Shown one piece after another: positions 17,922 through 44,396 of a stretch of 64,000 bases of DNA. This stretch comes from Alphaproteobacteria bacterium (GTDB taxonomy: Bacteria > Pseudomonadota > Alphaproteobacteria > Rs-D84). The first letter of the stretch is position 1. Each line of letters starts with the position of its first letter. Location of the stretch: NCBI GenBank assembly GCA_009784235.1, contig WRCC01000003.1, forward strand, positions 328-64,327, written 5' to 3'. Below the pieces are notes generated by a model. That model did not search any database. It was not told the origin of the DNA and saw nothing but the letters and a program-made list of their open reading frames with translations. The position numbers were made by a program, and so were the translations under genes.

Positions 17922-20900
17922 TTAAAAGTTTGCCCGAATACCCATATTGGCGCCATAGTTCTTGAACTCTTTGTCGCCGTGCTGGTATGTGAATTCCCCG
18001 AACATGCCCATTCTGGCCGTGATTTCGCCGACCAAACCGATACCGTATTCATAACGGCTTTGCGGCAATTCGGAATTCAGCAGCACGCCGTCATAAGTAA
18101 TATTCGTCCGGCCATCGAATTCGCGCAGGTATGTAAATTTTGCATACGGCTGGACGGATTCAAAGTTATATCGCATCAGGAATCCGACTTGTCCGGATAA
18201 TGACGAACTGGCGTCATATTGGCCTGTGAATCCCGCGCTGTCTGTAAATTTATCGCCGTCGATATATGCATATACCAATTCTGCGCGCGGCTCCAGAATC
18301 AATCTGTCGGTCGCCTTGTATTGGTATCCCAGTTCCGCGCTGACCATAGCCACCAGCGATTTGGTCGTATAATCGATTTTATTGTCGGCGCCGTCGTAAT
18401 AGTATGCATAGCTGTCCAAAAATGCCATACGACCGATCAGGTCGATATAAACATTGCTGGGGAACAATGTCGTTAAATAAATATTCGCGTATGGAACAGT
18501 TGCACTGCCGCCGCCGTCGCGCGACGCCAATGCCGATGTTTTATGACTGGCCGAATTTATACCCGCGCCGCCGCCCAGAATCATGCGCGTTGTGGAACCG
18601 CCCAGCATATCGCGGTCGATGCCTGCTTCGGCGCCGAAATTATTGCCTTTGACTTTGGTCAAATCGTTGAATTCGGTCTGGTTTCCATAAGTACGCGCCC
18701 AAACACGGGTCTTGGACACAGGTCCAGCCAATCGCAAATCACCCAGACGTTTGTGCAACGCATTTTGAATATCGCGCACGGCATAATGGAACCGATGCGC
18801 ACCGTGCATTCCGATATTGGTCGCCGCATCAGACAGCGTCGGAACAAACACATCGCCGCCACCGCCGTTGCCATTTCCGTCATCCGGAATTTCGATACAA
18901 TTATCACCGACACAATTCAGCGACCATATACCGGCATTATTCGCCAGCACATAATTGCGCGCGCCGATACCAACATAGTCTGCACCGTTCGCCAGCGTGA
19001 AATTCATAATACCGGATTGGTCGTCGATTAATTCCAATCCTTGGATGACGCCGACATTCGCCGCACCCACGGCCAATTTATGGTCCACCACGCCCCAATC
19101 CAACACAGATAATATCGTCAGATGGTCGGCGATGCCCGCATCATAATCGGTATTCATCACGAATGTGATATCGCTGTGCGCGTCCAGCTGGGAAATGGTC
19201 GCAGTCTTGAAATCCGCGGTATAATGCGAAAACTCGATTCTTGCACCCGCTGCTTCATCACCGACCAATATCCGCGGCAATATCAGATTATTATCCGAAA
19301 TAATAATGCTGGAATTTTCGCCGGACATGGCGAATGTGATATTCGAATCGTAAGTATATTGCTTTAATTCCAATATTCCACCGCCCGCGCCTATATTCAC
19401 GTCGCGCGCGAATATATTATTTGCATCCGATGCGCCCAGCAATAAATACCCGCCTGGATTTAAATCCAAAGTTGACCCGCCCGATTCTACATTACCGATA
19501 ATAATCAGATTATCGATATTGCCCAAATCGGCATCGCGACCGATATTGTTCAAATATCCACCATGAAATGCATTAATAAACCCGCCGTTGAAATTATCAA
19601 TATACGCGCGGTCGGTCATCATGCCGATTGAGCCGCCAGTCATCAAGCCCATCCAGGACGACCCAGAAAAATCATGAATATAACCCGCCGTCATGCTGCC
19701 CACTGAACCTTGGTGAATGGTTCCAATATCGCCACCGGTCATTAATCCAATATACGCATCGTCATGAATATCATCGATGCGACCGCTGGTTATTGTTCCG
19801 ATACTGCTGCTGCGCAGATTACGAATATTGCCGCTGGTCATCATGTCGATATGGCTGCCCCCGCTGATATCCTGGATTTCGCCGCCCATCAGCAGACCGA
19901 TGTGTCCGCCGTTTTTAATGTTTCCAATCTGGCCATTAAACATCGCCACGATATTTCGTCCGTCCAAATTCTCTATACGGCCACCAAACATATTTTCAAT
20001 CGTGCCACCGGAAACAGTGCCGACATATCCGTCGAACAAATTGGTAATAACGCCACCGGTCATGGAATCAATACGAGTGTATCCTTCGTTATACATATTT
20101 CGAATTTCGCCGGCATTGTTATTTATGGTGCCATTGGTAAATCTGTTAATCGTGCCACCATTATGATATACGATTGTGCCGCCGCGCATATTTTCGATGT
20201 ATCCGTTGGACTTGTTTATAATCGTGCCAAAGTTCATATTGTTAATGCGCGCATCGCCGTTCATCGCGTATATTGTGCCGTCATACATATTATCGATACG
20301 CGCATTTCCGGACATCGACATAATCAAAGAATTATCATACATATTATATATGTGCCCGCCCGTCATAGACCGAATATTTCCGTAATTCCGCAGCGTGCCG
20401 ATATATCCGCCCTGCATATTGTTGATTTGTCCGCCGTGCAAGGTGTCGATATTACCGTTGATAAAATTCTGGACTTCGCCGCCGTACATGTTGCTGATGC
20501 GGCCATAGTTAATATTGGTGATTCGTCCGTTGTTCATGCTATAGACAGTTGCAGAATCATTCAGGTTATTTATAACGGCGCCCCATCCGTTCATGTTATC
20601 GATTCTGGCATAACTGATATTATTAATCGTCCCGCCGTACATATTGTAAATTATAGCATTTTCGTAATAATAATTGGTCCATCCGCCTGGATTCCAAACA
20701 CTGGCATATCCATTGACATTATCTATATATCCACCGTTCATATTATTTATGATGGTTGCGGTCGCATTACTGGAATTCATGTTGTACAGATAAGCACCAC
20801 TGTTCAGATTATTTATGGTGCCACCATACATATAGCCGCCCCACTGATTAAAAGAATCCCACCATTCGCCGTGGTTTATCGATACCGAATGCGATGGCAT

Positions 20901-20948
20901 TGCAGCAATAGAAAAAACAACCGCTGAAGTTAAAAATAATTTTTTCAT
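17922..20948 (-). CDS. Autotransporter (type Va) with highly repetitive passenger
   Basis: Signal peptide MKKLFLTSAVVFSIAAMPSHS after a GGGAGAGG SD. The passenger is dozens of GGxIxNM-like units. The C-terminal ~280 aa has an alternating beta-strand pattern ending ..GANMGIRANF, typical of an autotransporter barrel. Confidence 0.88.
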   Translation of the reverse strand: MKKLFLTSAVVFSIAAMPSHSVSINHGEWWDSFNQWGGYMYGGTINNLNSGAYLYNMNSSNATATIINNMNGGYIDNVNGYASVWNPGGWTNYYYENAIIYNMYGGTINNISYARIDNMNGWGAVINNLNDSATVYSMNNGRITNINYGRISNMYGGEVQNFINGNIDTLHGGQINNMQGGYIGTLRNYGNIRSMTGGHIYNMYDNSLIMSMSGNARIDNMYDGTIYAMNGDARINNMNFGTIINKSNGYIENMRGGTIVYHNGGTINRFTNGTINNNAGEIRNMYNEGYTRIDSMTGGVITNLFDGYVGTVSGGTIENMFGGRIENLDGRNIVAMFNGQIGNIKNGGHIGLLMGGEIQDISGGSHIDMMTSGNIRNLRSSSIGTITSGRIDDIHDDAYIGLMTGGDIGTIHQGSVGSMTAGYIHDFSGSSWMGLMTGGSIGMMTDRAYIDNFNGGFINAFHGGYLNNIGRDADLGNIDNLIIIGNVESGGSTLDLNPGGYLLLGASDANNIFARDVNIGAGGGILELKQYTYDSNITFAMSGENSSIIISDNNLILPRILVGDEAAGARIEFSHYTADFKTATISQLDAHSDITFVMNTDYDAGIADHLTILSVLDWGVVDHKLAVGAANVGVIQGLELIDDQSGIMNFTLANGADYVGIGARNYVLANNAGIWSLNCVGDNCIEIPDDGNGNGGGGDVFVPTLSDAATNIGMHGAHRFHYAVRDIQNALHKRLGDLRLAGPVSKTRVWARTYGNQTEFNDLTKVKGNNFGAEAGIDRDMLGGSTTRMILGGGAGINSASHKTSALASRDGGGSATVPYANIYLTTLFPSNVYIDLIGRMAFLDSYAYYYDGADNKIDYTTKSLVAMVSAELGYQYKATDRLILEPRAELVYAYIDGDKFTDSAGFTGQYDASSSLSGQVGFLMRYNFESVQPYAKFTYLREFDGRTNITYDGVLLNSELPQSRYEYGIGLVGEITARMGMFGEFTYQHGDKEFKNYGANMGIRANF

Positions 20949-21012
20949 GAATCCTCTCCCGTTATTATACAATAGGAATTCTATCACATAATCATGAAAT
21001 AAAAAAGGTGTT

Positions 21013-21042: not shown

Positions 21043-23763
21043 TTACATGGCAATGTCACGACACTCCTCAACCGGTGGTTCAGATTCGCATTGGACGCCG
21101 CGGCTGTCCCACAGCCCCAGGAACCCGCGACTGCCCTTTGTCCGGCAATTCTTTATAATTGTCGAAGTACAGTAATGACAGTTGCGCGTATTCCGATCGA
21201 ACAGCGACCACATTTCGCGCGTACCACCATCAAATTCGACTGAATGCTTGGATGATGCCAAGACGCCAATGGCCTTGACCGCCGCATCCGCAATCGCGAC
21301 AACCGGAACTGTTTTTGCCATTGTTGACGCAAGGCCGGTCGCTGTTTCCGCGGCTTTCGATGCGGTCATCGCAACCGTTGCCGCCGCAGTCGTGCCAACG
21401 CCCATAACAATGGTTCCGCCTGTGCCCCCTGTACGTGCACCCGCCGCCGCACCAGTTGTGGTTTCCATCGTCGTCTGGCCCAATGTTCCGGATGTGCGCG
21501 TTCCGCCCGCGGCAATCGCGCTGTCCGCAACGCCCGCAAATTCCATGACTATGGCATACGGAGTAATAATATTATTATTCATTTCCGCAGCGGTCGTGCC
21601 CTGGGCCATGCCGTTTGAAAATGGCAATTTATTACACATCAAGTTTGCCATATCAACGGATGCATTACGCATTGCGTCCGCGACAATTTCATTGAATTTC
21701 CGGTTGTAATTATCCTGGGCCGCGCGCAATGCGGAAACCGATATTTGCATTTTAACCTGGTTCAGCAAATTCGGAAAACGCGCCGCCGTCCGGCCGGCCG
21801 TGCCCGTAATCTGCGACGTGTCGCGGCCATTTATGCAGTATTGAATCTGCGGGTCTAATTCAATCATTTCAATGACGCGGTTAATTGTGCCCTGGATATT
21901 TTGCAATTCGAAATAGATATTATCGACAACGCGGCCGTATTGTTCCGGCACACCCAATCGGCCCAAGCTTTCGAAATAATCACGCAAATCAATCATTCCG
22001 GCGCCCAGTGTGATTTCATTTCCGTCCAAATTGCGCACGCGCGTCTGACCATTTCCGACATTAATTTTTCCGAACGATATCATGCCGCTGATGCGATATA
22101 CTCCGCCGTCTTTTTGCGATGCCAACGAACCTGTACCCATCGTATCGTCCGCGGCGAACCGATTACAATCGGACGTCGAACCACATATTTCCATCATCTT
22201 GGTTTCGACCAAGTTCTGGCAATTTTCCAGTGCGGCATTATCAACGTTCAGCCAAAAGCCCAACAGCAGGCGGTCCAAATCTTCCATCTTGAATTCCTGG
22301 CCGCGTTCGGCGTAATTTCGGCGGCAAATCGGCAAAGAATCCAGTGGACACATTTGGTGCATGAAATTGTAATCCATACCGATACAGTTTGAAAAATCCG
22401 AACCGCATCCAATTGGCGCGGGCCGCGTAAAACAGGTACGCACTTCGTCAGTACAAGCATCAACCGCGATGGAACGCAGACGCGCGACGACGTATGTCCA
22501 GATTTCCGGTTCCATCCGTTCACACGGGTCGATTACATTTTTACATGTCGCGCGGGCGACGGCGCCGTTACGGTCCAGACATGCCGCGATATTTCCACCT
22601 TGGCCAATCATCGGATCGGCGCACGCTTTCTGAATACACGCCGAAATATCGCCCATGCAGGATTGACGCATTCCAGATTCCAAATTCAATTCAGCCAATC
22701 GCATTTCCGGTGCAATATCGCGCAAGAAATTTGGCCACACGGTATCGCGCACGGCCATACATTGGTCCAGAATTCGTTCGCACATAATCTTTTTGGAATC
22801 CAGCATTTCCAATGTCGATGGCGAAATCTGGAATTTTTGTGTTGTTGCAACAGTTGTGCGCGCTGTACTGATGGCGCGATTATTCTGCATATTTTCCGCC
22901 GCCACAAAAGATGCACATCGTGACCAATCGGCACCACATGCATCATCGCCGCGCATGCATTGTTTGAAATTTATCAGACATGTTCCGGCATCGAAACGGT
23001 TTGCTTCTTCGAAAGATGCGCGCAATGCGCCGCGGACTTCGCCACGTGCTTCGGCCAATTCGGATTCAGCGCGGCGTTTTTCATTTTGTGTAAAATTATC
23101 AAATGCGCGACAATCATTTCGAATTTGCGTCGAATACAATTGCGTAATCATTTGTTCATCACGTGCGCGGCATGACGCCGGCATTTGAGGAGCGCACATT
23201 TTATGCGCGGCAGTGCGTAAAGATTCACCCGTCTGGTTTGCAATTGAATCAAAAGTTTCCGCGAACGGATTGCCTAAATCGAAAGCATTATTATTATCCC
23301 ACAGCGACATCATTTCCGCGCGCCGTCGGTCACGCGCCGCGCGCGTGCTTTCAGGCGCAGTCGCTGCATTCAATCCAACAACATTGCCCGCCGCGTCATA
23401 CCGACGTTCGCCGGTGAATATAATATCGGCACGTGCGCCTGCTTCGATTTTTTCGACCTCGATTGTACGCAGATTGTTTGCTTCGGCCAGTTGTTTTTCA
23501 ACATCCGTCAAGACTGCTTGGAATTTATCGTTATCATCACTGCATAAACAAGAACCCGCGGCTTCGTTATCTGAAATACAAAATTGATCCATACATCCAA
23601 AATATGCGTTGTGACATTCCGGCGAATAAAGACCCGTTGCTTCGACACGCTGGCGCACAGCCGTACCGCCTGGCACAACCGCAGTGCGCGCCGCAACGGC
23701 GGCCGCAGCATCGCCAATCGCGATGCCAATTATTGCAAATGATATTAAGAATATTTTTTTCAT
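21043..23763 (-). CDS. Large exported cysteine-rich protein (906 aa), CMDQFC family
   Basis: Signal peptide MKKIFLISFAIIGIAIGDAAA. Has CHNAYFGCMDQFCISDNEAAGSCLCS, NDCRAFDNF, ACGADWSRC and GCGSDFSNC. About 36 Cys by hand count. Gly/Ala/Thr-rich C-terminal segment. Confidence 0.8.
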   Translation of the reverse strand: MKKIFLISFAIIGIAIGDAAAAVAARTAVVPGGTAVRQRVEATGLYSPECHNAYFGCMDQFCISDNEAAGSCLCSDDNDKFQAVLTDVEKQLAEANNLRTIEVEKIEAGARADIIFTGERRYDAAGNVVGLNAATAPESTRAARDRRRAEMMSLWDNNNAFDLGNPFAETFDSIANQTGESLRTAAHKMCAPQMPASCRARDEQMITQLYSTQIRNDCRAFDNFTQNEKRRAESELAEARGEVRGALRASFEEANRFDAGTCLINFKQCMRGDDACGADWSRCASFVAAENMQNNRAISTARTTVATTQKFQISPSTLEMLDSKKIMCERILDQCMAVRDTVWPNFLRDIAPEMRLAELNLESGMRQSCMGDISACIQKACADPMIGQGGNIAACLDRNGAVARATCKNVIDPCERMEPEIWTYVVARLRSIAVDACTDEVRTCFTRPAPIGCGSDFSNCIGMDYNFMHQMCPLDSLPICRRNYAERGQEFKMEDLDRLLLGFWLNVDNAALENCQNLVETKMMEICGSTSDCNRFAADDTMGTGSLASQKDGGVYRISGMISFGKINVGNGQTRVRNLDGNEITLGAGMIDLRDYFESLGRLGVPEQYGRVVDNIYFELQNIQGTINRVIEMIELDPQIQYCINGRDTSQITGTAGRTAARFPNLLNQVKMQISVSALRAAQDNYNRKFNEIVADAMRNASVDMANLMCNKLPFSNGMAQGTTAAEMNNNIITPYAIVMEFAGVADSAIAAGGTRTSGTLGQTTMETTTGAAAGARTGGTGGTIVMGVGTTAAATVAMTASKAAETATGLASTMAKTVPVVAIADAAVKAIGVLASSKHSVEFDGGTREMWSLFDRNTRNCHYCTSTIIKNCRTKGSRGFLGLWDSRGVQCESEPPVEECRDIAM

Positions 23764-23783: not shown

Positions 23784-25946
23784 TTACATGTTGGTGTTAT
23801 CGCAACTTTCGATTTCTTGGCATACCATTTGTGCTTTGGATTTGCCGCCAATCAATCCGACAACGCCGCCGACCGCGCCACCAATCAGCGCGCCCCATGG
23901 CCCGGCAACCATACCCGCACCCGCACCGCCGGCCGCCATCGCACCCGCGCTGCCCAATCCGGAATTGTTTGTTCCGCCGCGCGCACATACTTTTTGAACC
24001 GTGCAGATTTTGCAATTGCGTAATGCTTCTTCGAACACGTGCGTTGTAACCCATGTGCCCGGTTTGTTTTCGCTTTGCGCGTGCGATGAATTTCCAGCGC
24101 GGCGTGCATTAAATACTTCGTCGCAATTTTTACGTGCATCCGCCACCGACATTGCACGCGACAATTCAGCCTTGCGCGCGGCCCATGCGCGTTTCAACCG
24201 GTCTTCGGCCTGGATAACCGCAATGCTTTTTGCGATGACATTTACATTTTTACCCGCATTGCCAACACATCGTTTAACCGTTGGGTCAGATTCCAATTGC
24301 TTGAATAATTGGTCTGATTCCGTACGGGCAAACATTCGTATCGGCGATACGCCGTCGCGTCCGGCGGTGATTAATCTGTTCAAATCATCCATCGTCAAAG
24401 CGGTTTCAATCGCCGGATTTATCGATATGCACGAAACCATGTCCGCGCCGCACGTACGGTTCAGCACGTCCGCGAAATAGTTGATACATCCATCGGTCAG
24501 CTGGGAATCAACCTGCCACAATGCGGACGCCAATATAGTATCGAAATCGTCATTGTTCGCGCATGATGGGAACATTTCCTGGGGGCACATTGCGGCGATG
24601 CCGACGGCTTGTTCACCGATACATGCTGGGTTCGAATAATCAATTCCGCATTTGTCTTGCAAACATTTCGTGACATCATTCTGGCAGAAACGCGAACGAA
24701 TAAAGCCCAAATTCCCAGAAACAATATTTTTCATCCCAGGCACAAGCGTTTCACATTCATTGATTATCGGACAAATTCCGGCGGCAACATTGATGTTGGA
24801 AAGGCAATCTGCACGCGTGCCAATGCGACATGAATCTTCCAAGCATGCATCAATGCGCAGCAAGCAGGACCCGCGTTTATCACGTTCTGCGAATGCTGCG
24901 GCTTCGCGCAGAATCGTGACTGTGCGTTCTTCCCATCTTTCTGTAACATACGAACGTGACGCCAAACATTGGTCCAGAATATTATCGCACGCACGCGCAC
25001 GCATAGACAGCAATCCAGCATCCAAACAGTTTTCGAAATTATCGCCGCATCCGCCCTTGTTCGAAACACAAGATTCAAACGCGACCAAGCATTCACCCGC
25101 ATTGAAACGATTCGTCACGTCGCGCATTTCCCATCGCGCGGCACGAACTTGCCTCTCGGCCAGTGCAAGATTTGATTCCGCGATTTTTTTCTGTTCACCC
25201 AAGAATGCATTAAACGCACGACAATCATTTGTGATTAAACGTTCATATAAAATTTCTTCCATTCGCGCATCCGGGCCGCATGCTTCCAACCTGCTCGCGC
25301 ATGATGCACGCGCCATCTGATATAAATTGCGCCCTATTTCTTCGTCCGCATCCAGCGCGGCTGACGACCCACCACCAATCCACGCCATAAAATCAATACC
25401 GCGACTTTTTGCTTTTTGTCCGGTTCCAAATGCCCAATCCGCGTGTGCGCCGTACCGTTCGCGTTCGACGCCTTCGTTCGCGGCGCGTGATGCACGCGTC
25501 ATAATATCGTTGATTTCTTTAATCAAAGGTTTGGATTGATTTATGTTATCGGAACAAGCGCACCGTTCGCCTTCGGTTGAATCCATCAAACAGAATTGGT
25601 CCATGCAATCACGAAATTCAGTGCGGCAATTGTTTGAACTGCCCGCTGCGGGGGTGGGTTCTGGTGTGCCGGCTGATATTGCAATTATTGCTTTTTCCAT
25701 TGGGGTTGCCGGCGCCGGTGCAACGGGAACAAATGGTTGAACAGATGGCCCGCCACCGCCACCGCCGCCCAATCCCGCAACCATGCTGGGCGCACGTTGA
25801 CGCGCCGCGGTCTGGGAAGCATTCGCACGAACCGCCGTCGCGCGCGTTGGTGCATGCGCGTCTTCGGATCGTTCTGCGCCATGTGCCACGCCGCATAATA
25901 AAATTACGGAAAATACCGGAATCAAACCGGAAATTATTTTCTTCAT
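23784..25946 (-). CDS. Large exported cysteine-rich protein (~720 aa), CMDQFC family
   Basis: ATG at 25946 after a GGGAAGAG SD gives MKKIISGLIPVFSVILLCGVAHG. Has CRTEFRDCMDQFCLMDSTEGERCACS, NDCRAFNAF and GCGDNFENC. C-terminal Gly-zipper AGGAGAGMVAGPWGALIGGAVGGVVGLIGG. Confidence 0.8.
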   Translation of the reverse strand: MKKIISGLIPVFSVILLCGVAHGAERSEDAHAPTRATAVRANASQTAARQRAPSMVAGLGGGGGGGPSVQPFVPVAPAPATPMEKAIIAISAGTPEPTPAAGSSNNCRTEFRDCMDQFCLMDSTEGERCACSDNINQSKPLIKEINDIMTRASRAANEGVERERYGAHADWAFGTGQKAKSRGIDFMAWIGGGSSAALDADEEIGRNLYQMARASCASRLEACGPDARMEEILYERLITNDCRAFNAFLGEQKKIAESNLALAERQVRAARWEMRDVTNRFNAGECLVAFESCVSNKGGCGDNFENCLDAGLLSMRARACDNILDQCLASRSYVTERWEERTVTILREAAAFAERDKRGSCLLRIDACLEDSCRIGTRADCLSNINVAAGICPIINECETLVPGMKNIVSGNLGFIRSRFCQNDVTKCLQDKCGIDYSNPACIGEQAVGIAAMCPQEMFPSCANNDDFDTILASALWQVDSQLTDGCINYFADVLNRTCGADMVSCISINPAIETALTMDDLNRLITAGRDGVSPIRMFARTESDQLFKQLESDPTVKRCVGNAGKNVNVIAKSIAVIQAEDRLKRAWAARKAELSRAMSVADARKNCDEVFNARRAGNSSHAQSENKPGTWVTTHVFEEALRNCKICTVQKVCARGGTNNSGLGSAGAMAAGGAGAGMVAGPWGALIGGAVGGVVGLIGGKSKAQMVCQEIESCDNTNM

Positions 25947-26031
25947 CTCTTCCCTTTTTATATCTCTTGTAAATTTTATCAGAAAAGGCCCGCAGGGGCA
26001 AATCATTATTTGTTCCCGTAATTATTATTTT

Positions 26032-26594: not shown

Positions 26595-27095
26595 GTGAAA
26601 AAACACAAACTATTTTTGTCAATGGCTTTGTTTATCGCATTCATGATGCCTGCGTTTGCCGAACGGGTCTTGGAAACCAACTATTTCCCGGGGCTGGCTT
26701 TCAACGATGAATCCCGGACAGAATTCACATGGATATGGGATGTTTATACAGCAAAAAACACCAGACTTGCCGATTGCAATGCATGCGCTGCGAATAACAA
26801 CGGATGTATTGTCCGGGAAGAATCCGTTACCGCGACCGTAACGCGGGAACAAAAAGAATCTTTTGGTATCGCGAATTCCCCAACGGGCCGGGAAGTGGTC
26901 AGAACAAAATTCATAGCCGTCGGGTGCGCTGAACAGGCAGGCGATAATAATAATACAGCCACGGGCATGGCTGTAACTGGTCAGAATTTTGGTTCAAATA
27001 CAGCGAACAGTGTGGTCGCAAGTGCACAAAATAATCTGGTCGCAAACACACATTCCGCCAATTATGATGAAACCCGATTGATGATCAGGCGATAA
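26595..27095 (+). CDS. Exported hypothetical protein (166 aa, GTG start)
   Basis: Signal peptide MKKHKLFLSMALFIAFMMPAFA. The C-terminal ..NYDETRLMIRR resembles the mature N-terminus of 47491-48549. Confidence 0.5.
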   Translation: MKKHKLFLSMALFIAFMMPAFAERVLETNYFPGLAFNDESRTEFTWIWDVYTAKNTRLADCNACAANNNGCIVREESVTATVTREQKESFGIANSPTGREVVRTKFIAVGCAEQAGDNNNTATGMAVTGQNFGSNTANSVVASAQNNLVANTHSANYDETRLMIRR

Positions 27096-27155: not shown

Positions 27156-27989
27156 ATGCAAATTCGCAAATTATTTTTGCCATTGTTTTTGTTCAGCGCA
27201 TTCGCATCGCCATTGTTTGCAGAATCTGAAACGGCCACAGAACCCACCCAGGAAGTCACGGACGCAGAACAACGATTGGCCGAAGCAAGGGCACGACAAA
27301 ATTCTTTGGCAAATCGCGCCATCGGCGGCGTTGCAATTACCGGCGGCGGAATTGGCGGCGGCCAATTGGCCCAAGGGTTGGCCGAACGCCGCGCAGACCA
27401 AGCGGCCGCGGATGAAATGGAATCATATCGCGCAACAATTCGGTGCGGATTGACTGGCGGCCCGCATAATACGCCAATTGATGCAACCGGCGAAACGCCG
27501 GGATATTCACAACAATTTTTCACACTGATGTCAGATTATAATGATACCGCCACGCGACTGCGCGTTATCAAAGAAGCACTTTCATTGCCACCTGGCATTG
27601 AATCCGAAGCGCGAATAAATACAGACGTTCTGTACAGCAACGAAGCCATGGCCGAAATCGACCGCACGGGCGCATTTGGAAATACCGCCCAGCAAAGATT
27701 GGATGACGGTGATGCGCAAGCTCGAATTAATACCGGTACCACAGTTGCTGCGGTCGGTATTGGCGCCGGGTTGGTTGGCAATGTCCTGGTCAATCATATA
27801 CAGCCGGAATTGGGTGCAGGCAACATAGATAAAGAATTGGAAAAAATCCAAAACCAAGAACCGAAACAGGAACGTGCCGACGGCGAAAAAACCGGTGTTG
27901 GTAATGTTATTTCTGCGGTTGGCAGTGCAGTGGGCTCTGCCGGCAGCGCAGTTGGAAATGTTGTTGGAAACGTATTTTCAAGGAATTAA
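27156..27989 (+). CDS. Exported hypothetical protein with Gly-zipper-like segments (277 aa)
   Basis: Signal peptide MQIRKLFLPLFLFSAFASPLFA. Has GGVAITGGGIGGGQ, AAVGIGAGLVGNV and GNVISAVGSAVGSAGSAVGNVVGNV. Confidence 0.6.
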   Translation: MQIRKLFLPLFLFSAFASPLFAESETATEPTQEVTDAEQRLAEARARQNSLANRAIGGVAITGGGIGGGQLAQGLAERRADQAAADEMESYRATIRCGLTGGPHNTPIDATGETPGYSQQFFTLMSDYNDTATRLRVIKEALSLPPGIESEARINTDVLYSNEAMAEIDRTGAFGNTAQQRLDDGDAQARINTGTTVAAVGIGAGLVGNVLVNHIQPELGAGNIDKELEKIQNQEPKQERADGEKTGVGNVISAVGSAVGSAGSAVGNVVGNVFSRN

Positions 27990-28063: not shown

Positions 28064-28339
28064 TTATTCTGTCACAGCTTCCGTCGGTGCGGCCTGCTCT
28101 GTTCCTGGATTCGGCGTACGGTTGCGTTCGGCGCGGGATATGCGGCCTTTGTTCAAATCGTACGGTGTCATTTCTACTTGGACTTTTTCGCCAACATTAA
28201 CCCAAATGCGGTTTTTACGCATTTTGCCGCAAACCGTCGCGGTAATTTCATGCCCATTTTCCAATCGTACGCGAAACATGGTATTCGGCATTTTGTCCGT
28301 TACCACGCCGCTGAAAGTTATAACTTCGTCTTTTGCCAT
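28064..28339 (-). CDS. infA: Translation initiation factor IF-1 (with ~18-aa C-terminal extension)
   Basis: [42 protein letters not shown]....G.KV.VE.TPYDL.KGRI is near-canonical IF-1. Confidence 0.93.
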
Positions 28340-28491: not shown

Positions 28492-30615
28492 ATGACGAAA
28501 ATATTCACCGTTTTTGTTGCGGCTTTGTTTTGCGTACCTGCGTTTGCGACGCCACCACAGAACACGCGCGCCGTGGGCGGTACAACGAATGTTCGCACCG
28601 CTGCGACGCCTGTGACTACCACGACCACACCACGTGCCGCCGCGACACCAGAAATTGTCGGGCGCGCTGCGGCAACACTGCCTGCCCGTGCGGGCACAAC
28701 CGTGCCAACAATTGCGTCGCGAACTGCATCCCCGGAAATCACGACGCGCAGTGCGACAACGCAGCCACGCGCAATAATTGCCCAAACGCCGACCACTGCA
28801 CGCAGTGCGACCACGCCATCTGTCGCGCGTTCATCCATCGGATTGGCGCCGGCGGGCGCATCGATGGGCGGCGATTATAATTCTTGCCGCGATGCATATT
28901 TCACATGCATGGATCAATTTTGCGGCAATGCAAATGATAATTATCGCAGATGCACTTGTTCCGCACGACTGGACGATATCCAAGCACTGGAACGCCAAGT
29001 TCGCCAAACCGGCCAACAATTACAAGACTTTCATGATTTGAATATAGATGTGATATCCATGTCTTCGGCCGAAGTTGCGGCAATGTTAAAAGGAACCGCC
29101 GGCGAATATGCAGGCGCGTCTGCGCGTCGCACGGATGACAGCGCCGCCGCACAAACACTGGCCGGCATATCGGCGGTATTGGCTGGCACACGGGGCGCAG
29201 CATTGGCCACTGCGGGAAAATTGGATATCGGCGGTGATATAAATGAAATCTGGGCGGCATCCGCACTTATCGGCGGCGCGGATATACAAAATTTAACGGG
29301 CCGAAAATTATATGACCAAGTCCACGCGCAATGCGTCGTTATGGCGGAACCTTATTGCGGCCGCCAAGCAACCGTGAACATGGTCGTTGCTGCATACGGT
29401 ATGTATATCGAACAAGATTGCAATGTTGTCAAAGCCCAATTGGAAGGTCGCAGAATCCAAGCCGCGGCCGCAATCCGCGCGACGGAACGCGAAATGGGCG
29501 CCGCGCGTCTGGACAATTACAACGTCCATAATTCCGCCGAAATCAACGAATGCATCGCCCAAGTACGCCGTGATATCACGTCCCCCGACGCGTGCGGCCC
29601 GGAATACGTGCGATGTATGGATACAACCGGAATGTATTTGGATTTTGTCACGGGTGAACCTCTGTACACACCGCAGTTGTTTCATTTGGAAAATCTGTTG
29701 TCATTGGATGGCGATGTATTGGTCAATCCACAAAACCGATTGTTTGTATCTTTGCTAAACAACAAGAAACCATTTGCCGCACGCGGATTGGACACTTGTC
29801 GCGATATATCCGGCCATGTATGGGATGAATTTTTGCGCACCGCGATTGTCGAAATTTACCAGGGCCAGCAAAAGCGGGTACGCACCGCCAAAGACGATTG
29901 CGTCAATGTTTTAAACCAATGCTTTGACCAAAGTTTGACCCAGTTGAAAGATTTTTCCCACCAAGCCGCTGAAATGCTGGCCGGATATCGCATTGAATTG
30001 TCCGAAGAACTTTGTCGATCGCGACTGGATACTTGTGCGAACCTGTATGGCGGGGGCGAACCGGGATTGGCCGAACTGCGCGCGCTGATGCACAATATTG
30101 GAAATGCGATGCTGTATGATAATTGTCCGACTTTGATGAATGATTTTGCAAGAACGATTTGCACACCATTATCGCATGATACTGTGAACGTGTTCCCGTA
30201 TGATTGTCGTTCTTTTGAACCCGGCGGCATTGTCGAATGCGGCAGCAATGATAAACTGCAAGACTGCACAGACACATTATTTTACCGCTTTGTAAATTAT
30301 GCCAAAGATTATTGCGTACGTCCGGGCGAAAGAGAAGAAATATTCAAAGACCAAAAAATAATGGGCTTTATAAATTCAACGCTGGATGATTTGAAATTCA
30401 GCATGCGGAAAATGCTACGCGAACGATGCGAAAGTTTCGACGGTCTGTGGAAAGATTCAAATGATTGTACAGCACACACATCCGCAGGTATATGCAACGC
30501 TTCTGGCACTGGATGTGAATGGTACACAGCATGGAATATATGTATTATAAAACCAAATGAAAAGTATAAAGAAATCGGCGCAAATAATGTCTGGGGATTC
30601 TGCACAGAAAAATAA
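28492..30615 (+). CDS. Large exported cysteine-rich protein (707 aa), CMDQFC family
   Basis: Signal peptide MTKIFTVFVAALFCVPAFA, then a Thr/Ala/Arg/Pro-rich ~110-aa linker, then CRDAYFTCMDQFCGNANDNYRRCTCS, ACGPEYVRC and many further Cys. Confidence 0.8.
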   Translation: MTKIFTVFVAALFCVPAFATPPQNTRAVGGTTNVRTAATPVTTTTTPRAAATPEIVGRAAATLPARAGTTVPTIASRTASPEITTRSATTQPRAIIAQTPTTARSATTPSVARSSIGLAPAGASMGGDYNSCRDAYFTCMDQFCGNANDNYRRCTCSARLDDIQALERQVRQTGQQLQDFHDLNIDVISMSSAEVAAMLKGTAGEYAGASARRTDDSAAAQTLAGISAVLAGTRGAALATAGKLDIGGDINEIWAASALIGGADIQNLTGRKLYDQVHAQCVVMAEPYCGRQATVNMVVAAYGMYIEQDCNVVKAQLEGRRIQAAAAIRATEREMGAARLDNYNVHNSAEINECIAQVRRDITSPDACGPEYVRCMDTTGMYLDFVTGEPLYTPQLFHLENLLSLDGDVLVNPQNRLFVSLLNNKKPFAARGLDTCRDISGHVWDEFLRTAIVEIYQGQQKRVRTAKDDCVNVLNQCFDQSLTQLKDFSHQAAEMLAGYRIELSEELCRSRLDTCANLYGGGEPGLAELRALMHNIGNAMLYDNCPTLMNDFARTICTPLSHDTVNVFPYDCRSFEPGGIVECGSNDKLQDCTDTLFYRFVNYAKDYCVRPGEREEIFKDQKIMGFINSTLDDLKFSMRKMLRERCESFDGLWKDSNDCTAHTSAGICNASGTGCEWYTAWNICIIKPNEKYKEIGANNVWGFCTEK

Positions 30616-30635
30616 AATAGCCACGGAGATGGAAA

Positions 30636-31331
30636 ATGAAAAAATATTTAATTTTTGCACTTTGTTTGTTGGTCACGCCGGCGGTTGCTGACTGGTGGAA
30701 AATGCCAACGATTTGCAAACCATCTGCGAACCGATGCTGGCCATCGATGGGCGTGGGATTTGACGGTGGACTGTGGGATGCGGAATCTGCATGCTGGGGC
30801 ATGAAATTAATTTGTCCGGGCGCGCTGACCGCCAATGCACATGAACCAGAACCGATTTCCAAAGTGGCGCTGGGTAAAAATACCGGAATCAATACAGACT
30901 TTGATACGAATGCATTGAATTCGCGTGAACGATGTTTTGGTCTGCGCAAGACAACAGCAAATGGTGCAATGGCAACTGTGAACGGGCAAAGCGTTCGCGT
31001 ATGGTGCCGCGGCGTTTTGGATAATCCGGATGAAGAATTGGCAAACGGCGAAATTACGTATGGCACGCAACCAACATGTGCGCAATTGGCTGCGAATGGT
31101 TTTGTCGCGACGCTGAACGGAAATTGTTATGGTACAAAGTATGCAACGAACGATTACTTTATTGAATGCGGAACTGCGCTGTTGCCAACACGTATCGTTC
31201 AATTACGCGGTGCAACTGGCTGGACGTCTGGTGCGGCGGCGGGCGGCACGGGATTGGCAAATACAAATTCAATATTTGACGCAATGCAGCAAACATCAAC
31301 GACACAAAGAAACGAACATTTTAATAGGTAA
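30636..31331 (+). CDS. Exported cysteine-containing hypothetical protein (231 aa)
   Basis: Signal peptide MKKYLIFALCLLVTPAVA. Starts 20 nt downstream of 28492-30615, so probably co-transcribed. Confidence 0.6.
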   Translation: MKKYLIFALCLLVTPAVADWWKMPTICKPSANRCWPSMGVGFDGGLWDAESACWGMKLICPGALTANAHEPEPISKVALGKNTGINTDFDTNALNSRERCFGLRKTTANGAMATVNGQSVRVWCRGVLDNPDEELANGEITYGTQPTCAQLAANGFVATLNGNCYGTKYATNDYFIECGTALLPTRIVQLRGATGWTSGAAAGGTGLANTNSIFDAMQQTSTTQRNEHFNR

Positions 31332-31370
31332 AAGGTGGCTCGTGCTGGTGGTTGGTAACTAGTATCGAAC

Positions 31371-31408
31371 AAATAAACACTGTCTAATATATTAGACAGT
31401 GTTTATTT
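31371..31408. terminator. Perfect 38-bp palindrome (bidirectional terminator)
   Basis: AAATAAACACTGTCTAATA / TATTAGACAGTGTTTATTT. Lies between convergent 30636-31331 and prmC and overlaps the prmC stop. Confidence 0.65.
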
Positions 31409-32185
31409 GAACACCAAGACCCTTTCTATTTCTGATAAATCGTCATACGAACCAACAAACTGCCATTCGTTGCGCGTAAATACTTCCCGTACGGCATCGC
31501 CCTGGCCCGCACCGATTTCCAAAAATATTTTGCCACCAGGTGCCAAATGTTCACGCGCGGATTTTGCAATCGCGCGATACGCATCCAATCCATCTGCACC
31601 CGCATAAAGCGCAATTTTCGGGTCGTGCATCGCACCTGCATCCACGCGCAGGTCACCAATTGCGATGTATGGTGGATTTGAAATAATAATATCGAATTTC
31701 TGATTTATGATTTCTGATTTATGATTTAAGTTATTAAAATTTCCGCGCAAAATTTTAACCCTATCTTCCAATCCGTGTCGTTTTACATTCCGACGCGCAA
31801 TACGAATTACGGCGCGCGAAATATCGATACCGACACCTGTCGCACCCGGAATGTTTTTTACAATTGAACAAATTAAACATCCAGTACCGGTTCCCAGGTC
31901 GAGGATTTTCATGTTTTTATTATTTTTATTTTCCAGCACTGCTTCGACCAACGTTTCGCTATCCGGCCTTGGGTCCAATGTATGTCGGCTTGTTTCAAAC
32001 TCCATACCGTAAAACCATTTTTTGCCGACAATTTTCGCCACCGGCACACCGCGTCGTAATTTCCGCGCAGCAAAATGAATGCGAAATCGCAAAAACGATT
32101 TGCCTTGAATACTATTCAACACAACCTTTGCGTCGCGTGGGTTGCTGGCCCGGGCCAATATCTGGAATGCTTGATTTAATGTCAT
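31403..32185 (-). CDS. prmC: Release factor glutamine methyltransferase (PrmC/HemK)
   Basis: ILDLGTGTGC (SAM motif I) and IISNPPYI (NPPY catalytic motif). Confidence 0.88.
   Translation of the reverse strand: MTLNQAFQILARASNPRDAKVVLNSIQGKSFLRFRIHFAARKLRRGVPVAKIVGKKWFYGMEFETSRHTLDPRPDSETLVEAVLENKNNKNMKILDLGTGTGCLICSIVKNIPGATGVGIDISRAVIRIARRNVKRHGLEDRVKILRGNFNNLNHKSEIINQKFDIIISNPPYIAIGDLRVDAGAMHDPKIALYAGADGLDAYRAIAKSAREHLAPGGKIFLEIGAGQGDAVREVFTRNEWQFVGSYDDLSEIERVLVFK
31693..31727 (-). repeat. 35-bp five-heptad element, copy in prmC
   Basis: The minus strand reads AAATCAT AAATCAG AAATCAT AAATCAG AAATTCG. Translated in frame as ..LNHKSEIINQKF.., just before the NPPY motif. Confidence 0.8.
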
Positions 32186-36382: not shown

Positions 36383-37696
36383 ATGAAAATCTATCTGAAT
36401 CAAAATGTCTTGGATGCCGCGCTATCGCGCATAAAATACTGTTTCGATAATTTCGATAATGTTCTGGTTGCTTTTTCCGGTGGTAAAGACAGCGGCGTTT
36501 TAATCGAATTGTGCCACGATTACGCCCGCCAACACGGCCTGGTCCACAAAATGGCTATGTATCACGTGGATTACGAAGCTCAATATGAAAAAACCACTGA
36601 ATACGTCACAGAAACTTTCGACCGTATGGATGATATTCGGCGGTTCTGGCTGTGTTTGCCCATATCTGCGCAATGTGCAGTGAATATGCGAAATCCGGGC
36701 ATCTGGTATCCTTGGAATCCGGATGAACAAAGTATTTGGGTGCGTCCCCTGCCCCAACGCGATTTTGTCGTGCATGAAAAAAATGTACCGTTTAAATTCA
36801 ATCCCGGCGTTTCAGATTACGAAATGCAAGAAGCATTTTGCAAATGGTTTTCAAAGACGTATGGCAAAACCGCAGTCTTAATCGGCATCCGCACAGATGA
36901 AAGTTTAAATAGATTTCGCGTAATCGCCAGCAGCCGCCGAGTTAATGTATATAAAGACAAACCATGGATTTTGGGCGTCGGCGATGGATTAACATTCAAA
37001 GCATACCCAATTTACGATTGGTCAAGCGAAGACATATGGGTCGCAAACGCAAAATTCGGATATAAATATAATCGGCTTTATGACTTGATGTACCAAGCCG
37101 GCGTAAAATTGGAAAATATGCGCGTGGCCAGTCCATTCAACGATTGTGCAATAACTGCCTTGAAACTTTACAAAACAATCGAACCCGATACTTGGGCACG
37201 ATTGGTCGGGCGTGTTAATGGTGTAAATTTCGCCGGGATTTACGGCGGAACAACCGCAATGGGATGGCGTAATATAAAGCTGCCGCGTGGATATACTTGG
37301 AAACAATATTGTTCTTTTTTATTGGATACTTTGGATAAACCGTTACGCCAAAATTATGAAAAAAAATTACAAACCAGCATTCGGTTTTGGCAATACAAGG
37401 GTGGTGCGCTGTCCGATAAAACCATCGCGGAATTAAAAAAATCAAAGCATGCACATGGTAACAAAGGCAAGGTCAGCCGGACATCCAACAAAGACGTGAT
37501 AACATTTCCGGAATATCCGGATGACTTGGACATCACGGATTTCAAAAGCGTTCCAACATATAAACGCATGTGTATATGTATATTAAAGAACGACTATTTT
37601 TGCAAATATATGGGATTCGCCGCGACCAAGGAAGAAACGCTGCGCAAGCGTATCGCGCTGGATATATATAAATGTTTATGGGGGGACATAAAATGA
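36383..37696 (+). CDS. PP-loop ATP-pyrophosphatase / PAPS-reductase-like protein (IbrA-like)
   Basis: VLVAFSGGKDSGV PP-loop near the N-terminus and a long C-terminal extension. Overlaps the downstream ParB-like gene by ATGA, the arrangement known for E. coli IbrA-IbrB. Confidence 0.75.
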   Translation: MKIYLNQNVLDAALSRIKYCFDNFDNVLVAFSGGKDSGVLIELCHDYARQHGLVHKMAMYHVDYEAQYEKTTEYVTETFDRMDDIRRFWLCLPISAQCAVNMRNPGIWYPWNPDEQSIWVRPLPQRDFVVHEKNVPFKFNPGVSDYEMQEAFCKWFSKTYGKTAVLIGIRTDESLNRFRVIASSRRVNVYKDKPWILGVGDGLTFKAYPIYDWSSEDIWVANAKFGYKYNRLYDLMYQAGVKLENMRVASPFNDCAITALKLYKTIEPDTWARLVGRVNGVNFAGIYGGTTAMGWRNIKLPRGYTWKQYCSFLLDTLDKPLRQNYEKKLQTSIRFWQYKGGALSDKTIAELKKSKHAHGNKGKVSRTSNKDVITFPEYPDDLDITDFKSVPTYKRMCICILKNDYFCKYMGFAATKEETLRKRIALDIYKCLWGDIK

Positions 37697-38229
37697 CAAA
37701 ATCAAAATCGACAAGTCCGGTTTATAATGTAATTGGTGTGCCAATTGACCAAATAAATGCAAATGCGTATAACCCGAATATGGTCGCGCCGCCGGAAATG
37801 GAATTGCTATATAAATCCATTCTGGAAGACGGATACACGATGCCAATTGTATGCTATAAAATGAATGACGGACGATATGAAATCGTCGATGGATTTCACC
37901 GATATATGGTGATGAAAACACATCCAGATATTTATGAACGCGAAGATGGCTGTATGCCGGTCGTTGTTATAAACAAAGATATTTCAAACCGCATGGCATC
38001 AACGATAAGGCATAACAGAGCCCGCGGCAGCCATAGCATCGAATTAATGGTTAACATAGTTCGCGATTTAGTTGCGGCCGGAATGTCGGATGCCTGGATA
38101 CTAAAAAATATAGGAATGGATACGGATGAATTATTACGTCTGAAACAAATCAGCGGGTTGCAAGCACTGTTCGCTGACAAAGAATTCAGCACGGCATGGA
38201 CAATTGACAGCACAAGAAAATATGCATAA
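37693..38229 (+). CDS. ParB/sulfiredoxin-like nuclease-domain protein (IbrB-like)
   Basis: PIDQINANAYNPN, VDGFHRY (DGxHR) and TIRHNRARG motifs. Its start overlaps the IbrA-like stop. Confidence 0.75.
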   Translation: MTKSKSTSPVYNVIGVPIDQINANAYNPNMVAPPEMELLYKSILEDGYTMPIVCYKMNDGRYEIVDGFHRYMVMKTHPDIYEREDGCMPVVVINKDISNRMASTIRHNRARGSHSIELMVNIVRDLVAAGMSDAWILKNIGMDTDELLRLKQISGLQALFADKEFSTAWTIDSTRKYA

Positions 38230-43298: not shown

Positions 43299-44396
43299 TT
43301 ACGCCGCCGCCTGCATACCACGTTTTGATTCGCGAACGTGCGCGCGCAAATTATCAATTGGAACCAATGTTCCATCGTCTTTTTCTGCCGACCAATAATC
43401 CCATCCGTTAAAAGACACTGCGCCTTGGATTTTTGCCGCCATAATATGAATTGAATGCTTGCCCAATAATGTATGCTGCAATTGCGCGTCCTTTGTGACC
43501 ATCACTCGGTCGCCGCGCCGACCAACCAAAGTCTGGCCGACATACAGCAATCCGGCCGATATCAATTCCACAAATGCAACGCGTGCTTCTTCGCGTTTTG
43601 CGGCAACTTCGATTGATGATAAATCAATCGGCCGTACGTCGGCAATGCGCGTACGCGCGCCGGCAATATAAGATTCTTCGCGTTCAATTCCAATCCAGTT
43701 GCGTCCCAGCTCTTTTGCCACCGCGCCCGTCGTTCCCGAACCAAAAAACGGGTCCAGGATTATATCGCCCTGCTTGGTCGATGCCAATATTACGCGGCGC
43801 AATAAATCCATAGGTTTTTGCGTATTGTGCAAAGATTTTCCGTCCGTGCCCTTTAACCGTTCGCCGCCCAGACATATATTTATATCCCAGTCCGACCGCA
43901 TCTGTTTGCCACCGGCAAATTTCTTCATGGTGTCGTAATTGAAAGTATAAGCGCCCGTTTTGGACGGCGTCGCCCATATTAATGTTTCATGCGCGTTCGT
44001 GAACCGCGTGCCGCGAAAATTCGGCATCGGATTGGTTTTGATCCAAATGATATCGTTCAGAATCCAGAATCCCAAATCTTGCATCGCAGCGCCAACACGG
44101 AAAATATTGTGATAGCTGCCGATGACCCACATGGACCCGTTCGGTTTTAAAACGCGACGACATTCGGCCAGCCATTCGCGTGTAAAAGCATCATATTCGG
44201 CGGCCGACGCAAATTGGTCCCAATCGTCGCGCACGGCACGCGCGGCCGTTTGGTCTTCGGGCCGGTACAGTGTTTTCACACCCAACTGCAAATTGAACGG
44301 TGGGTCGGCAAAGACCGCATCAATGGACGCATCCGGCAATTCGCGCATACGCGCGATACAGTCGCCCTGTAAAATGGTGTTAATCCACTCTCTCAT
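43299..44396 (-). CDS. ccrM: Cell-cycle-regulated DNA adenine methyltransferase CcrM (GANTC-type)
   Basis: Collinear by eye with Caulobacter CcrM: GDCI..M..LP..S.D..FADPPFNLQLG, WVIGSYHNIFRVG...QDLGFWILNDI.W.K.NPMPNF.GTRF.NAHETLIWA, ILDPFFG.GTTGA.AK.LGR..IGIERE. Motif IV is DPPF rather than DPPY. Confidence 0.92.
   Translation of the reverse strand: MREWINTILQGDCIARMRELPDASIDAVFADPPFNLQLGVKTLYRPEDQTAARAVRDDWDQFASAAEYDAFTREWLAECRRVLKPNGSMWVIGSYHNIFRVGAAMQDLGFWILNDIIWIKTNPMPNFRGTRFTNAHETLIWATPSKTGAYTFNYDTMKKFAGGKQMRSDWDINICLGGERLKGTDGKSLHNTQKPMDLLRRVILASTKQGDIILDPFFGSGTTGAVAKELGRNWIGIEREESYIAGARTRIADVRPIDLSSIEVAAKREEARVAFVELISAGLLYVGQTLVGRRGDRVMVTKDAQLQHTLLGKHSIHIMAAKIQGAVSFNGWDYWSAEKDDGTLVPIDNLRAHVRESKRGMQAAA

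Follow-up and report, generated by a model that had tools for sequence, protein, structure and literature searches.

The window analysed in this study is a stretch of 64,000 nucleotides (nt) from an alphaproteobacterium of the order Rs-D84 in the Genome Taxonomy Database (GTDB) (assembly GCA_009784235.1, contig WRCC01000003.1). Its subject is a pair of neighbouring genes, here called D and E, that encode exported Cys-containing proteins, together with two further Cys-rich genes, B and C, on the opposite strand. A sequence-only reading of the pair had taken it for the third locus of a Cys-rich family, in which a low-complexity stalk holds a Cys-rich module at a distance from its anchor point. 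The open reading frames (ORFs) and the strings quoted there are present as claimed, namely the family signature and ACGPEYVRC in D and CKPSANRCW and ACWGMKLICPG in E; the N-termini of both proteins are of the export type, the two genes are 20 nt apart, and the pair lies between infA and a prmC-like gene. The genes and signals of the locus are the following:

21043-23763, minus strand: gene B, a Cys-rich paralogue of D according to BLASTP, hidden Markov model (HMM) and hhalign comparisons
23784-26006, minus strand: gene C, a Cys-rich paralogue of D; the longest ORF starts upstream (MICPCG...)
28064-28339, minus strand: infA, upstream of D
28492-30615, plus strand: gene D, an ORF for an exported Cys-rich protein of 707 amino acids (aa) with 29 Cys, 28 of them after the signal peptide
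30625-30628, plus strand: Shine-Dalgarno-like GGAG for gene E, 7 nt 5' of its ATG and inside the D-E gap
30636-31331, plus strand: gene E, an ORF for an exported 231-aa protein with 10 Cys, nine of them after the signal peptide
31371-31408, no strand assigned: perfect 38-bp palindrome between the convergent genes E and prmC, overlapping the prmC stop codon
31403-32185, minus strand: PrmC/HemK-type methyltransferase gene with an NPPY motif, downstream of E and convergent to it

The true start of C is likely MKKIISGL..., near 25946, downstream of the start of the longest ORF. Gene D itself is made up of these parts, the helical ones as predicted by AlphaFold2 (AF2) and with confidence given as predicted local distance difference test (pLDDT) values:

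Residues 1-20 (28492-28551, plus strand): signal peptide, MTKIFTVFVAALFCVPAFA before T, with an AxA-type cleavage site (MTK, hydrophobic core and AFA before T, by inspection)
Residues 21 to about 125, about 105 aa (28552-28866, plus strand): polycationic disordered Thr/Ala/Ser/Arg/Pro spacer, from composition, charge and AF2
Residues 132-157 (28885-28962, plus strand): family signature C-x6-C-M-D-Q-F-C-x9-C-x-C-S, CRDAYFTCMDQFCGNANDNYRRCTCS, from alignments
Residues 132-478 (28885-29925, plus strand): alpha-helical Cys-rich core common to B and C, from hhalign and AF2
Residues 367-375 (29590-29616, plus strand): ACGxx[YF]xxC motif, here ACGPEYVRC, within the core and conserved in B, C and D
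Residues 479-580 (29926-30231, plus strand): D-specific conserved helical region, pLDDT mostly 82-93, outside the B and C profiles
Residues 581-707 (30232-30612, plus strand): variable C-terminal region, from insertions and Cys frequencies

Judged from pairwise and profile comparisons, D is a genuine paralogue of both B and C. BLASTP within the window aligned D with B (E=1e-16 over about 350 aa) and with C (E=3e-13). For profile comparisons, orthologues of B, C, D, E and a further Cys-rich gene, J, were extracted from 86 related loci, and an HMM of B and C (135 orthologues) matched D at E=6.6e-39 over residues 67-518. The match extends far past the signature, which upholds the family membership proposed in the sequence-only reading; detection of the short signature alone, named there as a refutation, is not what was found. 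In hhalign, residues 132-478 of D were paired with residues 50-377 of B at a probability of 99.8%, and D with C at 99.5%, the aligned Cys of D being those at positions 132, 139, 144, 154, 156, 281, 289, 310, 354, 368, 375, 436, 470 and 477. All three proteins share the signal peptide, the signature, the ACGxx[YF]xxC motif and about 350 aligned residues with conserved Cys. The "exact family signature" of the earlier account is indeed exact in D, but only there, as the paralogues carry the variants CHNAYFGCMDQFC... and CRTEFRDCMDQFC.... Its positions C132, C139, M140-C144, C154, C156 and S157 are invariant in the 44 D-family sequences, and the same motif is aligned in B. ACGPEYVRC, formerly regarded as a variant unit, is a second motif in its own right, and profile-profile comparison gave no support for an internal duplication in D. 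E and J proved unrelated to B, C and D (hhalign probabilities of at most 41%), in agreement with the earlier view of E. Unlike its paralogues, D has a much longer, polycationic spacer and its own C-terminal half with a variable tip, and its Cys number varies from 20 to 56, whereas that of B and C is fixed at 36.

The order of these genes, followed by tblastn of the window proteins in related loci, is near-universally B (minus strand), C (minus strand), infA, D (plus strand) and E (plus strand). Counts were taken from 80 loci reached through D: infA lies directly upstream of D in 63 of 71, C is divergent and at most 4 kb upstream of D in 56 of 64, and E follows D in 58 of 74. Since B, C, infA, D and E are contiguous in most relatives, the D-E pair is, as far as conserved gene order can tell, one arm of a single conserved lineage-specific cluster and not the independent third locus as which it had been described. 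In the window, secG and two genes for small exported proteins have come between C and infA. Insertion sequences interrupt the unit in some relatives: a transposase of the IS1595 type lies between D and E (L005, 6922-7581), and a DDE_Tnp_1 transposase cuts the D homologue to 487 aa (L087, 1767-3269).

Relatives of D were searched with its Cys-rich part, leaving out the low-complexity spacer. More than 620 significant relatives were obtained with 43-63% identity, all of them unnamed and none with a Pfam domain, and relatives turned up in at least 365 genomes when one genome per species was scanned. Nearly all titles refer to metagenome-assembled genomes (MAGs) of Alphaproteobacteria, "Rickettsiales bacterium" or Candidatus Enterousia from the guts of termites, ruminants, horse, yak and humans (Hadza), including one circular genome of 958 kb. 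The housekeeping genes of the window are closest to termite-gut MAGs (parC 82%, infA 88%), which suggests that the window belongs to the same lineage. The searches place the D family in one lineage only, the uncultured small-genome gut Alphaproteobacteria of GTDB order Rs-D84. A few contigs (L010, L011, L012, L034, L072; also P0010) are labelled "uncultured Muribaculaceae" or "Lachnospiraceae", yet carry the alphaproteobacterial B-C-infA-D-E cluster; they are probably mis-binned or mislabelled. No relatives were detected by tblastn in phage and plasmid collections, and a phage or plasmid origin was rejected on this ground. Candidatus Enterousia (order Rs-D84) has genomes of about 0.75-1.0 Mb that lack most biosynthetic pathways and respiration, encode many hypothetical membrane proteins and retain the peptidoglycan machinery; these organisms are strict fermenters of an anoxic habitat for which a dependence on other cells has been proposed (PMC12306168).

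D and E make up a conserved unit of two genes, which is probably an operon. Their co-transcription, proposed before, is plausible from the layout of the locus: the 20-nt gap contains the Shine-Dalgarno sequence of E and, in a consensus scan, no terminator-like site, a strong hairpin follows E, and the two genes are adjacent in relatives, where the median gap is 58 nt and 54 of 57 gaps are shorter than 100 nt. No clear Shine-Dalgarno sequence precedes the ATG of D at 28492, and a promoter scan upstream of D gave matches no more numerous than in shuffled sequence. The perfect 38-bp palindrome with which the locus had been said to end does exist, but beyond the end coordinate of 31331 assigned to it. 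In a fold of 31332-31420 it makes up the 18-bp stem of a hairpin (-38 kcal/mol, z = -7.5, no shuffle as good), and it is probably a bidirectional terminator between E and prmC. The consensus terminator scan does not call this hairpin because the T-run of the palindrome is part of the stem.

The core of D is 40-70% identical across homologues. The AF2 model, built on 44 sequences, has a mean pLDDT of 67.5 and a predicted template modelling score (pTM) of 0.45; it depicts an all-helical module from residue 126 to about 650, with helices of up to 55 residues and pLDDT 80-93 over most of 270-650. Conservation fades towards the C-terminus, where block identity to the window residue drops from about 0.6 to 0.24 across residues 501-580, lies at 4-40% beyond residue 560 or so, and at 4-35% in the region 581-707. 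An insertion hot spot after residues 586-587 accommodates about 58 aa on average in 54 of 83 homologues, and in 61 of the 83 the protein continues past the conserved terminal W-G-x-C with Cys-rich extensions of as much as 349 aa. The D protein of the window is a short form, and its Cys 659, 668, 675 and 684 are nearly unique to its own lineage.

Across 84 family members, 22 Cys of mature D fall in alignment columns with at least 98% Cys. They are spread singly over a helical fold of 580 aa, many of them at i/i+7 on helices. The counts of the paralogues are more regular: there are 36 Cys in B and 36 in C, with an even number in 66 of 67 homologues of B and in 67 of 68 of C, which would fit full disulfide pairing. 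E has nine Cys in 63 of 65 homologues and an odd number in all 65, a count that may reflect one free or intermolecular thiol, and J is odd in 14 of 14. For D the parity is mixed (48 odd, 36 even). In a tally not corrected for phylogeny, about 42 D proteins were odd and 18 even where E is present, and five odd and 11 even where it is absent; that D is more often odd next to E is a hint of a link between the two and nothing more, as D of the window is even. Correlated gain and loss of Cys was uninformative for disulfide pairs in D, where whole modules come and go together. A different use of these residues, as metal or redox ligands of periplasmic metal-sequestering, Fe-S or thiol-buffer proteins D and E, would accord with a Cys content of about 4% in D, B and C, with the anoxic habitat and with the lack of any gene for a Dsb-like protein in the 64-kb window. 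However, CxxC, CxxCH and metallothionein-like clustering are all absent from D, its Cys stand singly along the helices, no metal-binding family was matched in the domain libraries, and the even, invariant counts of B and C fit pairing. We therefore regard a role as metal or redox ligands as very unlikely.

The N-terminal part of D consists of the signal peptide and a spacer that, in the window, is composed of 23% T, 21% A, 9% R, 9% P, 8% S and 8% G, with a net charge of +7 and about ten [AS]-R-[TSA]-[AT]-T-like units. The homologues share the layout of the signal peptide, and essentially all full-length ones continue in frame with a spacer of like character. In 75 of them the spacer is 77-154 aa long (median 104) and consists of 22% T, 16% A, 13% S, 11.5% R and 8% N, with D and E together at only 2%; the net charge of the N-terminal region in the alignment of 44 D sequences is +7 to +19. 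The loose periodicity that had been described is borne out by the Arg residues of the 75 spacers, whose spacing has a standard deviation of 3.5 against 7.2 in shuffles and a mode of nine, while spacings of 1-2 account for 1% against 22% in shuffles. R58, R86 and R113 are nearly invariant among the 44 sequences. Overall, the spacers are only about 20% identical, compared with 40-70% for the core. The disorder expected of residues 20-130 or thereabouts is likewise predicted, with pLDDT of about 30 over residues 13-125. The DNA of the spacer has a GC content of 63% because of its Thr, Ala, Arg and Pro codons; tandem repeats, considered as a source of the spacer, were not detected in it and are ruled out.

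These comparisons also bear on the start of D. NCBI and ENA call a product of 707 aa, whereas JGI calls one of 583 aa from M125 (28864), a start that would drop both the signal peptide and the spacer. Were M125 the true start, the spacer would be an artefact of assembly, a frameshift or an over-extended ORF, and the missing Shine-Dalgarno sequence before 28492 could be counted in favour of such a view. What remained would be a Cys-rich protein without an export signal, and the homologues carry the signal peptide and the same kind of spacer in frame. The family comparison contradicts the JGI start, and the chance that the spacer is an artefact is next to negligible. The spacer is a conserved disordered polycationic tail, and its length varies between relatives.

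The earlier idea of a stalk that displays the Cys-rich module off an anchor point fared less well. D has an AxA-type cleavage site and no lipobox of the form [LVI][ASTVI][GAS]C (AALFCVPAFA followed by TPP, with Phe at -1 of C14), and a hydropathy scan revealed no hydrophobic segment other than the signal peptide. In the same scan, B and C each showed a C-terminal hydrophobic or Gly-zipper segment (residues 817-838 and 700-719, respectively) followed by a short Cys-containing tail; no such segment is present in D. With no anchor found for D, the spacer would be a free N-terminal tail. A surface adhesin, tethered by its N-terminus and using the spacer as a stalk that holds the Cys-rich module off the cell to bind a partner or host, would nevertheless explain why the spacer is long, disordered and conserved in length (77-154 aa). 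It would also suit the hypervariable C-terminus with its Cys-rich modules, as in surface proteins under diversifying pressure, and the partner-dependent lifestyle predicted for Rs-D84 (PMC12306168). Besides the missing anchor, D lacks a beta-barrel, a type V or type IX secretion signal (T5SS, T9SS) or any other sorting signal, Pfam and NCBIfam found nothing in D although the neighbouring autotransporter was detected, and a core with 40-70% identity is more like that of a structural component. An adhesin of this kind is in our view rather unlikely.

The basic tail could also point the other way. The basic N-terminal region of the chlamydial protein OmcB binds heparan-sulfate-like glycans, and in a comparable, reversed orientation the Cys-rich module of D would sit in the envelope while the exposed polycationic tail binds mucin, glycosaminoglycans or wall polymers of a partner. 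The strongly basic character of the tail, its 2% of acidic residues, its regularly spaced Arg and the near-invariance of R58, R86 and R113 would suit this arrangement. Against it stand the absence of OmcB homology in D, the poor conservation of the tail (about 20% identity) and the lack of a known route across the outer membrane, and we consider it quite unlikely.

Gene E encodes a protein with a signal peptide of AxA type at residues 1-18 (...FALCLLVTPAVA before D, cleavage after AVA). It has no lipobox either (...TPAVA followed by DWW, the first mature Cys being residue 27), and its homologues are alike in this respect. The mature protein contains nine conserved Cys. The homologue search returned 11 sequences, and an exhaustive HMMER search with the E profile against 1.84 billion representative proteins gave 72 clusters, all but one of which consist of E-family proteins or of fragments, none longer than about 310 aa. 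The exception, a weak, repetitive match (E=2e-6) to a protein of 1882 aa with repeated Cys-containing domains, was judged to be compositional. The AF2 model of E is unusable (pLDDT 43) and suggests mostly strands and a C-terminal helix. From these searches E is an orphan family restricted to the lineage of D. No E was found near D in 16 of the 74 loci, the search with the E-family HMM included, and by this count E is a frequent but dispensable partner of D. In nine of the loci without E (L017, L019, L040, L042, L046, L057, L058, L069 and L083), D is followed by clpX on the opposite strand, with one gene between the two in L040 and L042; clpP and pgk come after clpX in six of the nine. In the window, clpX, clpP and pgk lie 22-28 kb from D and adjoin J. 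A gene for 623 aa on the opposite strand takes the place of E in L007.

A pair of exported proteins such as D and E, in a window rich in cell-wall hydrolases and with a variable C-terminal end in D, might also suggest a soluble effector or toxin, D, that is released against competing or partner cells, with E as an accessory or immunity factor. The pair is, however, chromosomal, syntenic throughout the order next to infA and not located on mobile elements; the phage and plasmid searches gave no relatives, PADLOC and PHROGs gave no match, and three ancient paralogues are kept in every genome. A signal peptide of its own would moreover be unusual for an immunity protein against a self-made toxin. 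This makes a toxin pair highly improbable.

Neither D nor E matched Pfam or NCBIfam at the curated cut-off, and neither had a match in PHROGs or PADLOC; Pfam searches with the 44 homologues of D and the 11 of E likewise gave nothing at the curated cut-off, only scattered weak matches below it. The family profiles of D and E found nothing among PDB sequences. With Foldseek, the best matches of the D model in PDB and BFVD had E values of 0.57 and 0.2 and template modelling (TM) scores below 0.2 (below 0.15 for the best in PDB). By these measures the D family is undescribed, database entries for the B/C/D proteins all being titled "hypothetical protein", and its predicted fold has no match in the two structure libraries searched.

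A system similar in layout to D and E is the chlamydial pair OmcB (60 kDa) and OmcA (9 kDa), in which neighbouring genes likewise encode two exported Cys-rich proteins, one large and one small, with a basic N-terminus on the large protein, a host-dependent bacterium with a reduced genome and a proposed role in a disulfide-cross-linked envelope. In contrast to this likeness, no sequence or domain similarity was found by Pfam or NCBIfam for D and its 44 homologues, the model of D is all-alpha while OmcB is beta-rich, and the lipobox Cys of the OmcA type is absent from E. The Hcp proteins of Helicobacter (Sel1-like) are, like D, a secreted, all-alpha, paralogous family with paired Cys in a host-associated bacterium, but neither D nor its 44 homologues contain Sel1- or TPR-like repeats, D shows no internal repeat, and it is far larger, with long helices instead of helix-turn-helix repeats. 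As an analogy, the Duffy-binding-like (DBL) domains and variant surface glycoproteins (VSG) of eukaryotic parasites also combine helical bundles, stapled by numerous Cys, with an exposed region that varies; the organisms and export routes differ, and the Foldseek search gave no structural match. From autotransporters D differs in having no C-terminal beta-barrel translocator, an all-alpha model and no NCBIfam match. Unlike Chlamydia, Rs-D84 keeps its peptidoglycan machinery (PMC12306168), and the window encodes M23, SLT and VanY enzymes.

We tentatively propose, with a probability of roughly 0.45, a disulfide-stabilised assembly in the envelope that is made up of B, C, D and usually E. D would be its subunit without an anchor, kept in place by the basic tail and by contact with the partner proteins, and the variable C-terminal tip of D would serve as an interaction surface. 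In favour of it speak the wide conservation of D, its paralogy with B and C, the conserved cluster with adjacent D and E, the export-type layout, the character of the spacer, the all-alpha core, the Cys counts, the variable tip, the presence in the window of J with its OmpA-like domain and of an autotransporter next to B, and the dependence on other cells and wealth of hypothetical membrane proteins described for the lineage (PMC12306168). D would be exported by the Sec pathway and its signal peptide cleaved, after which the conserved Cys would staple the long helices by disulfides. D would be the soluble subunit of this B/C/D(+E) assembly because it has no membrane anchor, in contrast to B and C with their C-terminal hydrophobic or Gly-zipper segments. 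Its basic N-terminal tail may bind anionic polymers of the envelope, that is peptidoglycan, lipopolysaccharide (LPS) or phospholipid, and further contacts or disulfides may link the protein to its paralogues and to E. The helical core, which is conserved, would have a structural role, and the variable Cys-rich tip might meet the outside in the form of a partner cell, a host or a phage. Such an assembly would be a functional counterpart of the chlamydial envelope complex of disulfide-cross-linked Cys-rich proteins, but with a fold unrelated to it.

Several points weigh against this proposal. The Cys parity of D is mixed across the family, and D of the window has an even number (28) despite the presence of E, which is itself missing from 16 of the 74 loci and so is not an obligatory partner. 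Disulfide formation in D is an assumption, made here for strict fermenters of an anoxic habitat, and the window has no gene for a Dsb-like protein. The model of D has a pTM of only 0.45, and distances between Cys cannot be read from it. Surface exposure of the C-terminal tip is speculative, as it would need a route for D across the outer membrane. A more far-reaching version, in which B, C, D and E build an undescribed disulfide-cross-linked helical envelope or attachment structure with a new fold, a hallmark of Rs-D84 that underlies its presumed attached or dependent life, and in which the tail of D binds an anionic polymer of its own wall or of a partner surface, is unlikely.

Rs-D84 bacteria are widespread in the guts of humans, livestock, birds and termites, have genomes below 1 Mb, are thought to live off other cells, and none has been cultured. 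That three large Cys-rich exported paralogues and their small partner have kept their position in genomes of about 900 genes throughout hundreds of species makes the cluster a prime candidate for a structure that defines the Rs-D84 envelope or its contact with partners. Solving the structure of the D family would add a new fold, and antibodies or tagged proteins could serve as handles on the partners of attachment; the cluster could also be used as a lineage-specific genomic marker.

The window encodes further envelope proteins. J (6440-8275, minus strand), 611 aa long, is a Cys-rich exported protein whose C-terminus is OmpA-like and peptidoglycan-binding; many Enterousia loci have it some 6 kb downstream of E, and a relative of the gene at 27156-27989 often comes after it. 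An autotransporter of 1021 aa with a pertactin-like passenger and a beta-barrel (17922-20987, minus strand; TIGR01414 at 1e-33) adjoins B, but other genomes do not have it in the conserved cluster. The window also encodes a SurA-like chaperone, signal peptidase I and several peptidoglycan hydrolases. From these envelope genes, J and the autotransporter included, it follows that the cell is a diderm with a wall. Four genes of the cell-wall hydrolase type lie within 64 kb of a very small genome (16154-17401, 32207-33457, 45084-46799 and 57528-58277), one each for a phage-lysozyme-domain protein whose N-terminal half is acidic, an M23 peptidase, an SLT transglycosylase and a VanY carboxypeptidase.

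Between C and infA, the segment 26207-27989 (plus strand) carries secG and the two genes for small signal-peptide proteins, whereas C and infA are adjacent in most relatives:

26595-27095, plus strand: small exported protein of 166 aa
27156-27989, plus strand: small exported protein of 277 aa with a Gly-rich C-terminus

Further along the window, a PAPS-reductase/DUF3440 protein is followed by a ParB_N protein (36383-38229, plus strand), a pair that presumably resembles IbrA/IbrB, and an N6/N4 DNA methylase with a RAMA domain is encoded nearby (43299-44396, minus strand). A protein of 1213 aa with a signal-peptide-like N-terminus and no Pfam match is encoded at 49621-53262 (minus strand); a gene for 1235 aa just downstream of the E homologue in L004 is like it in size, the only property compared.

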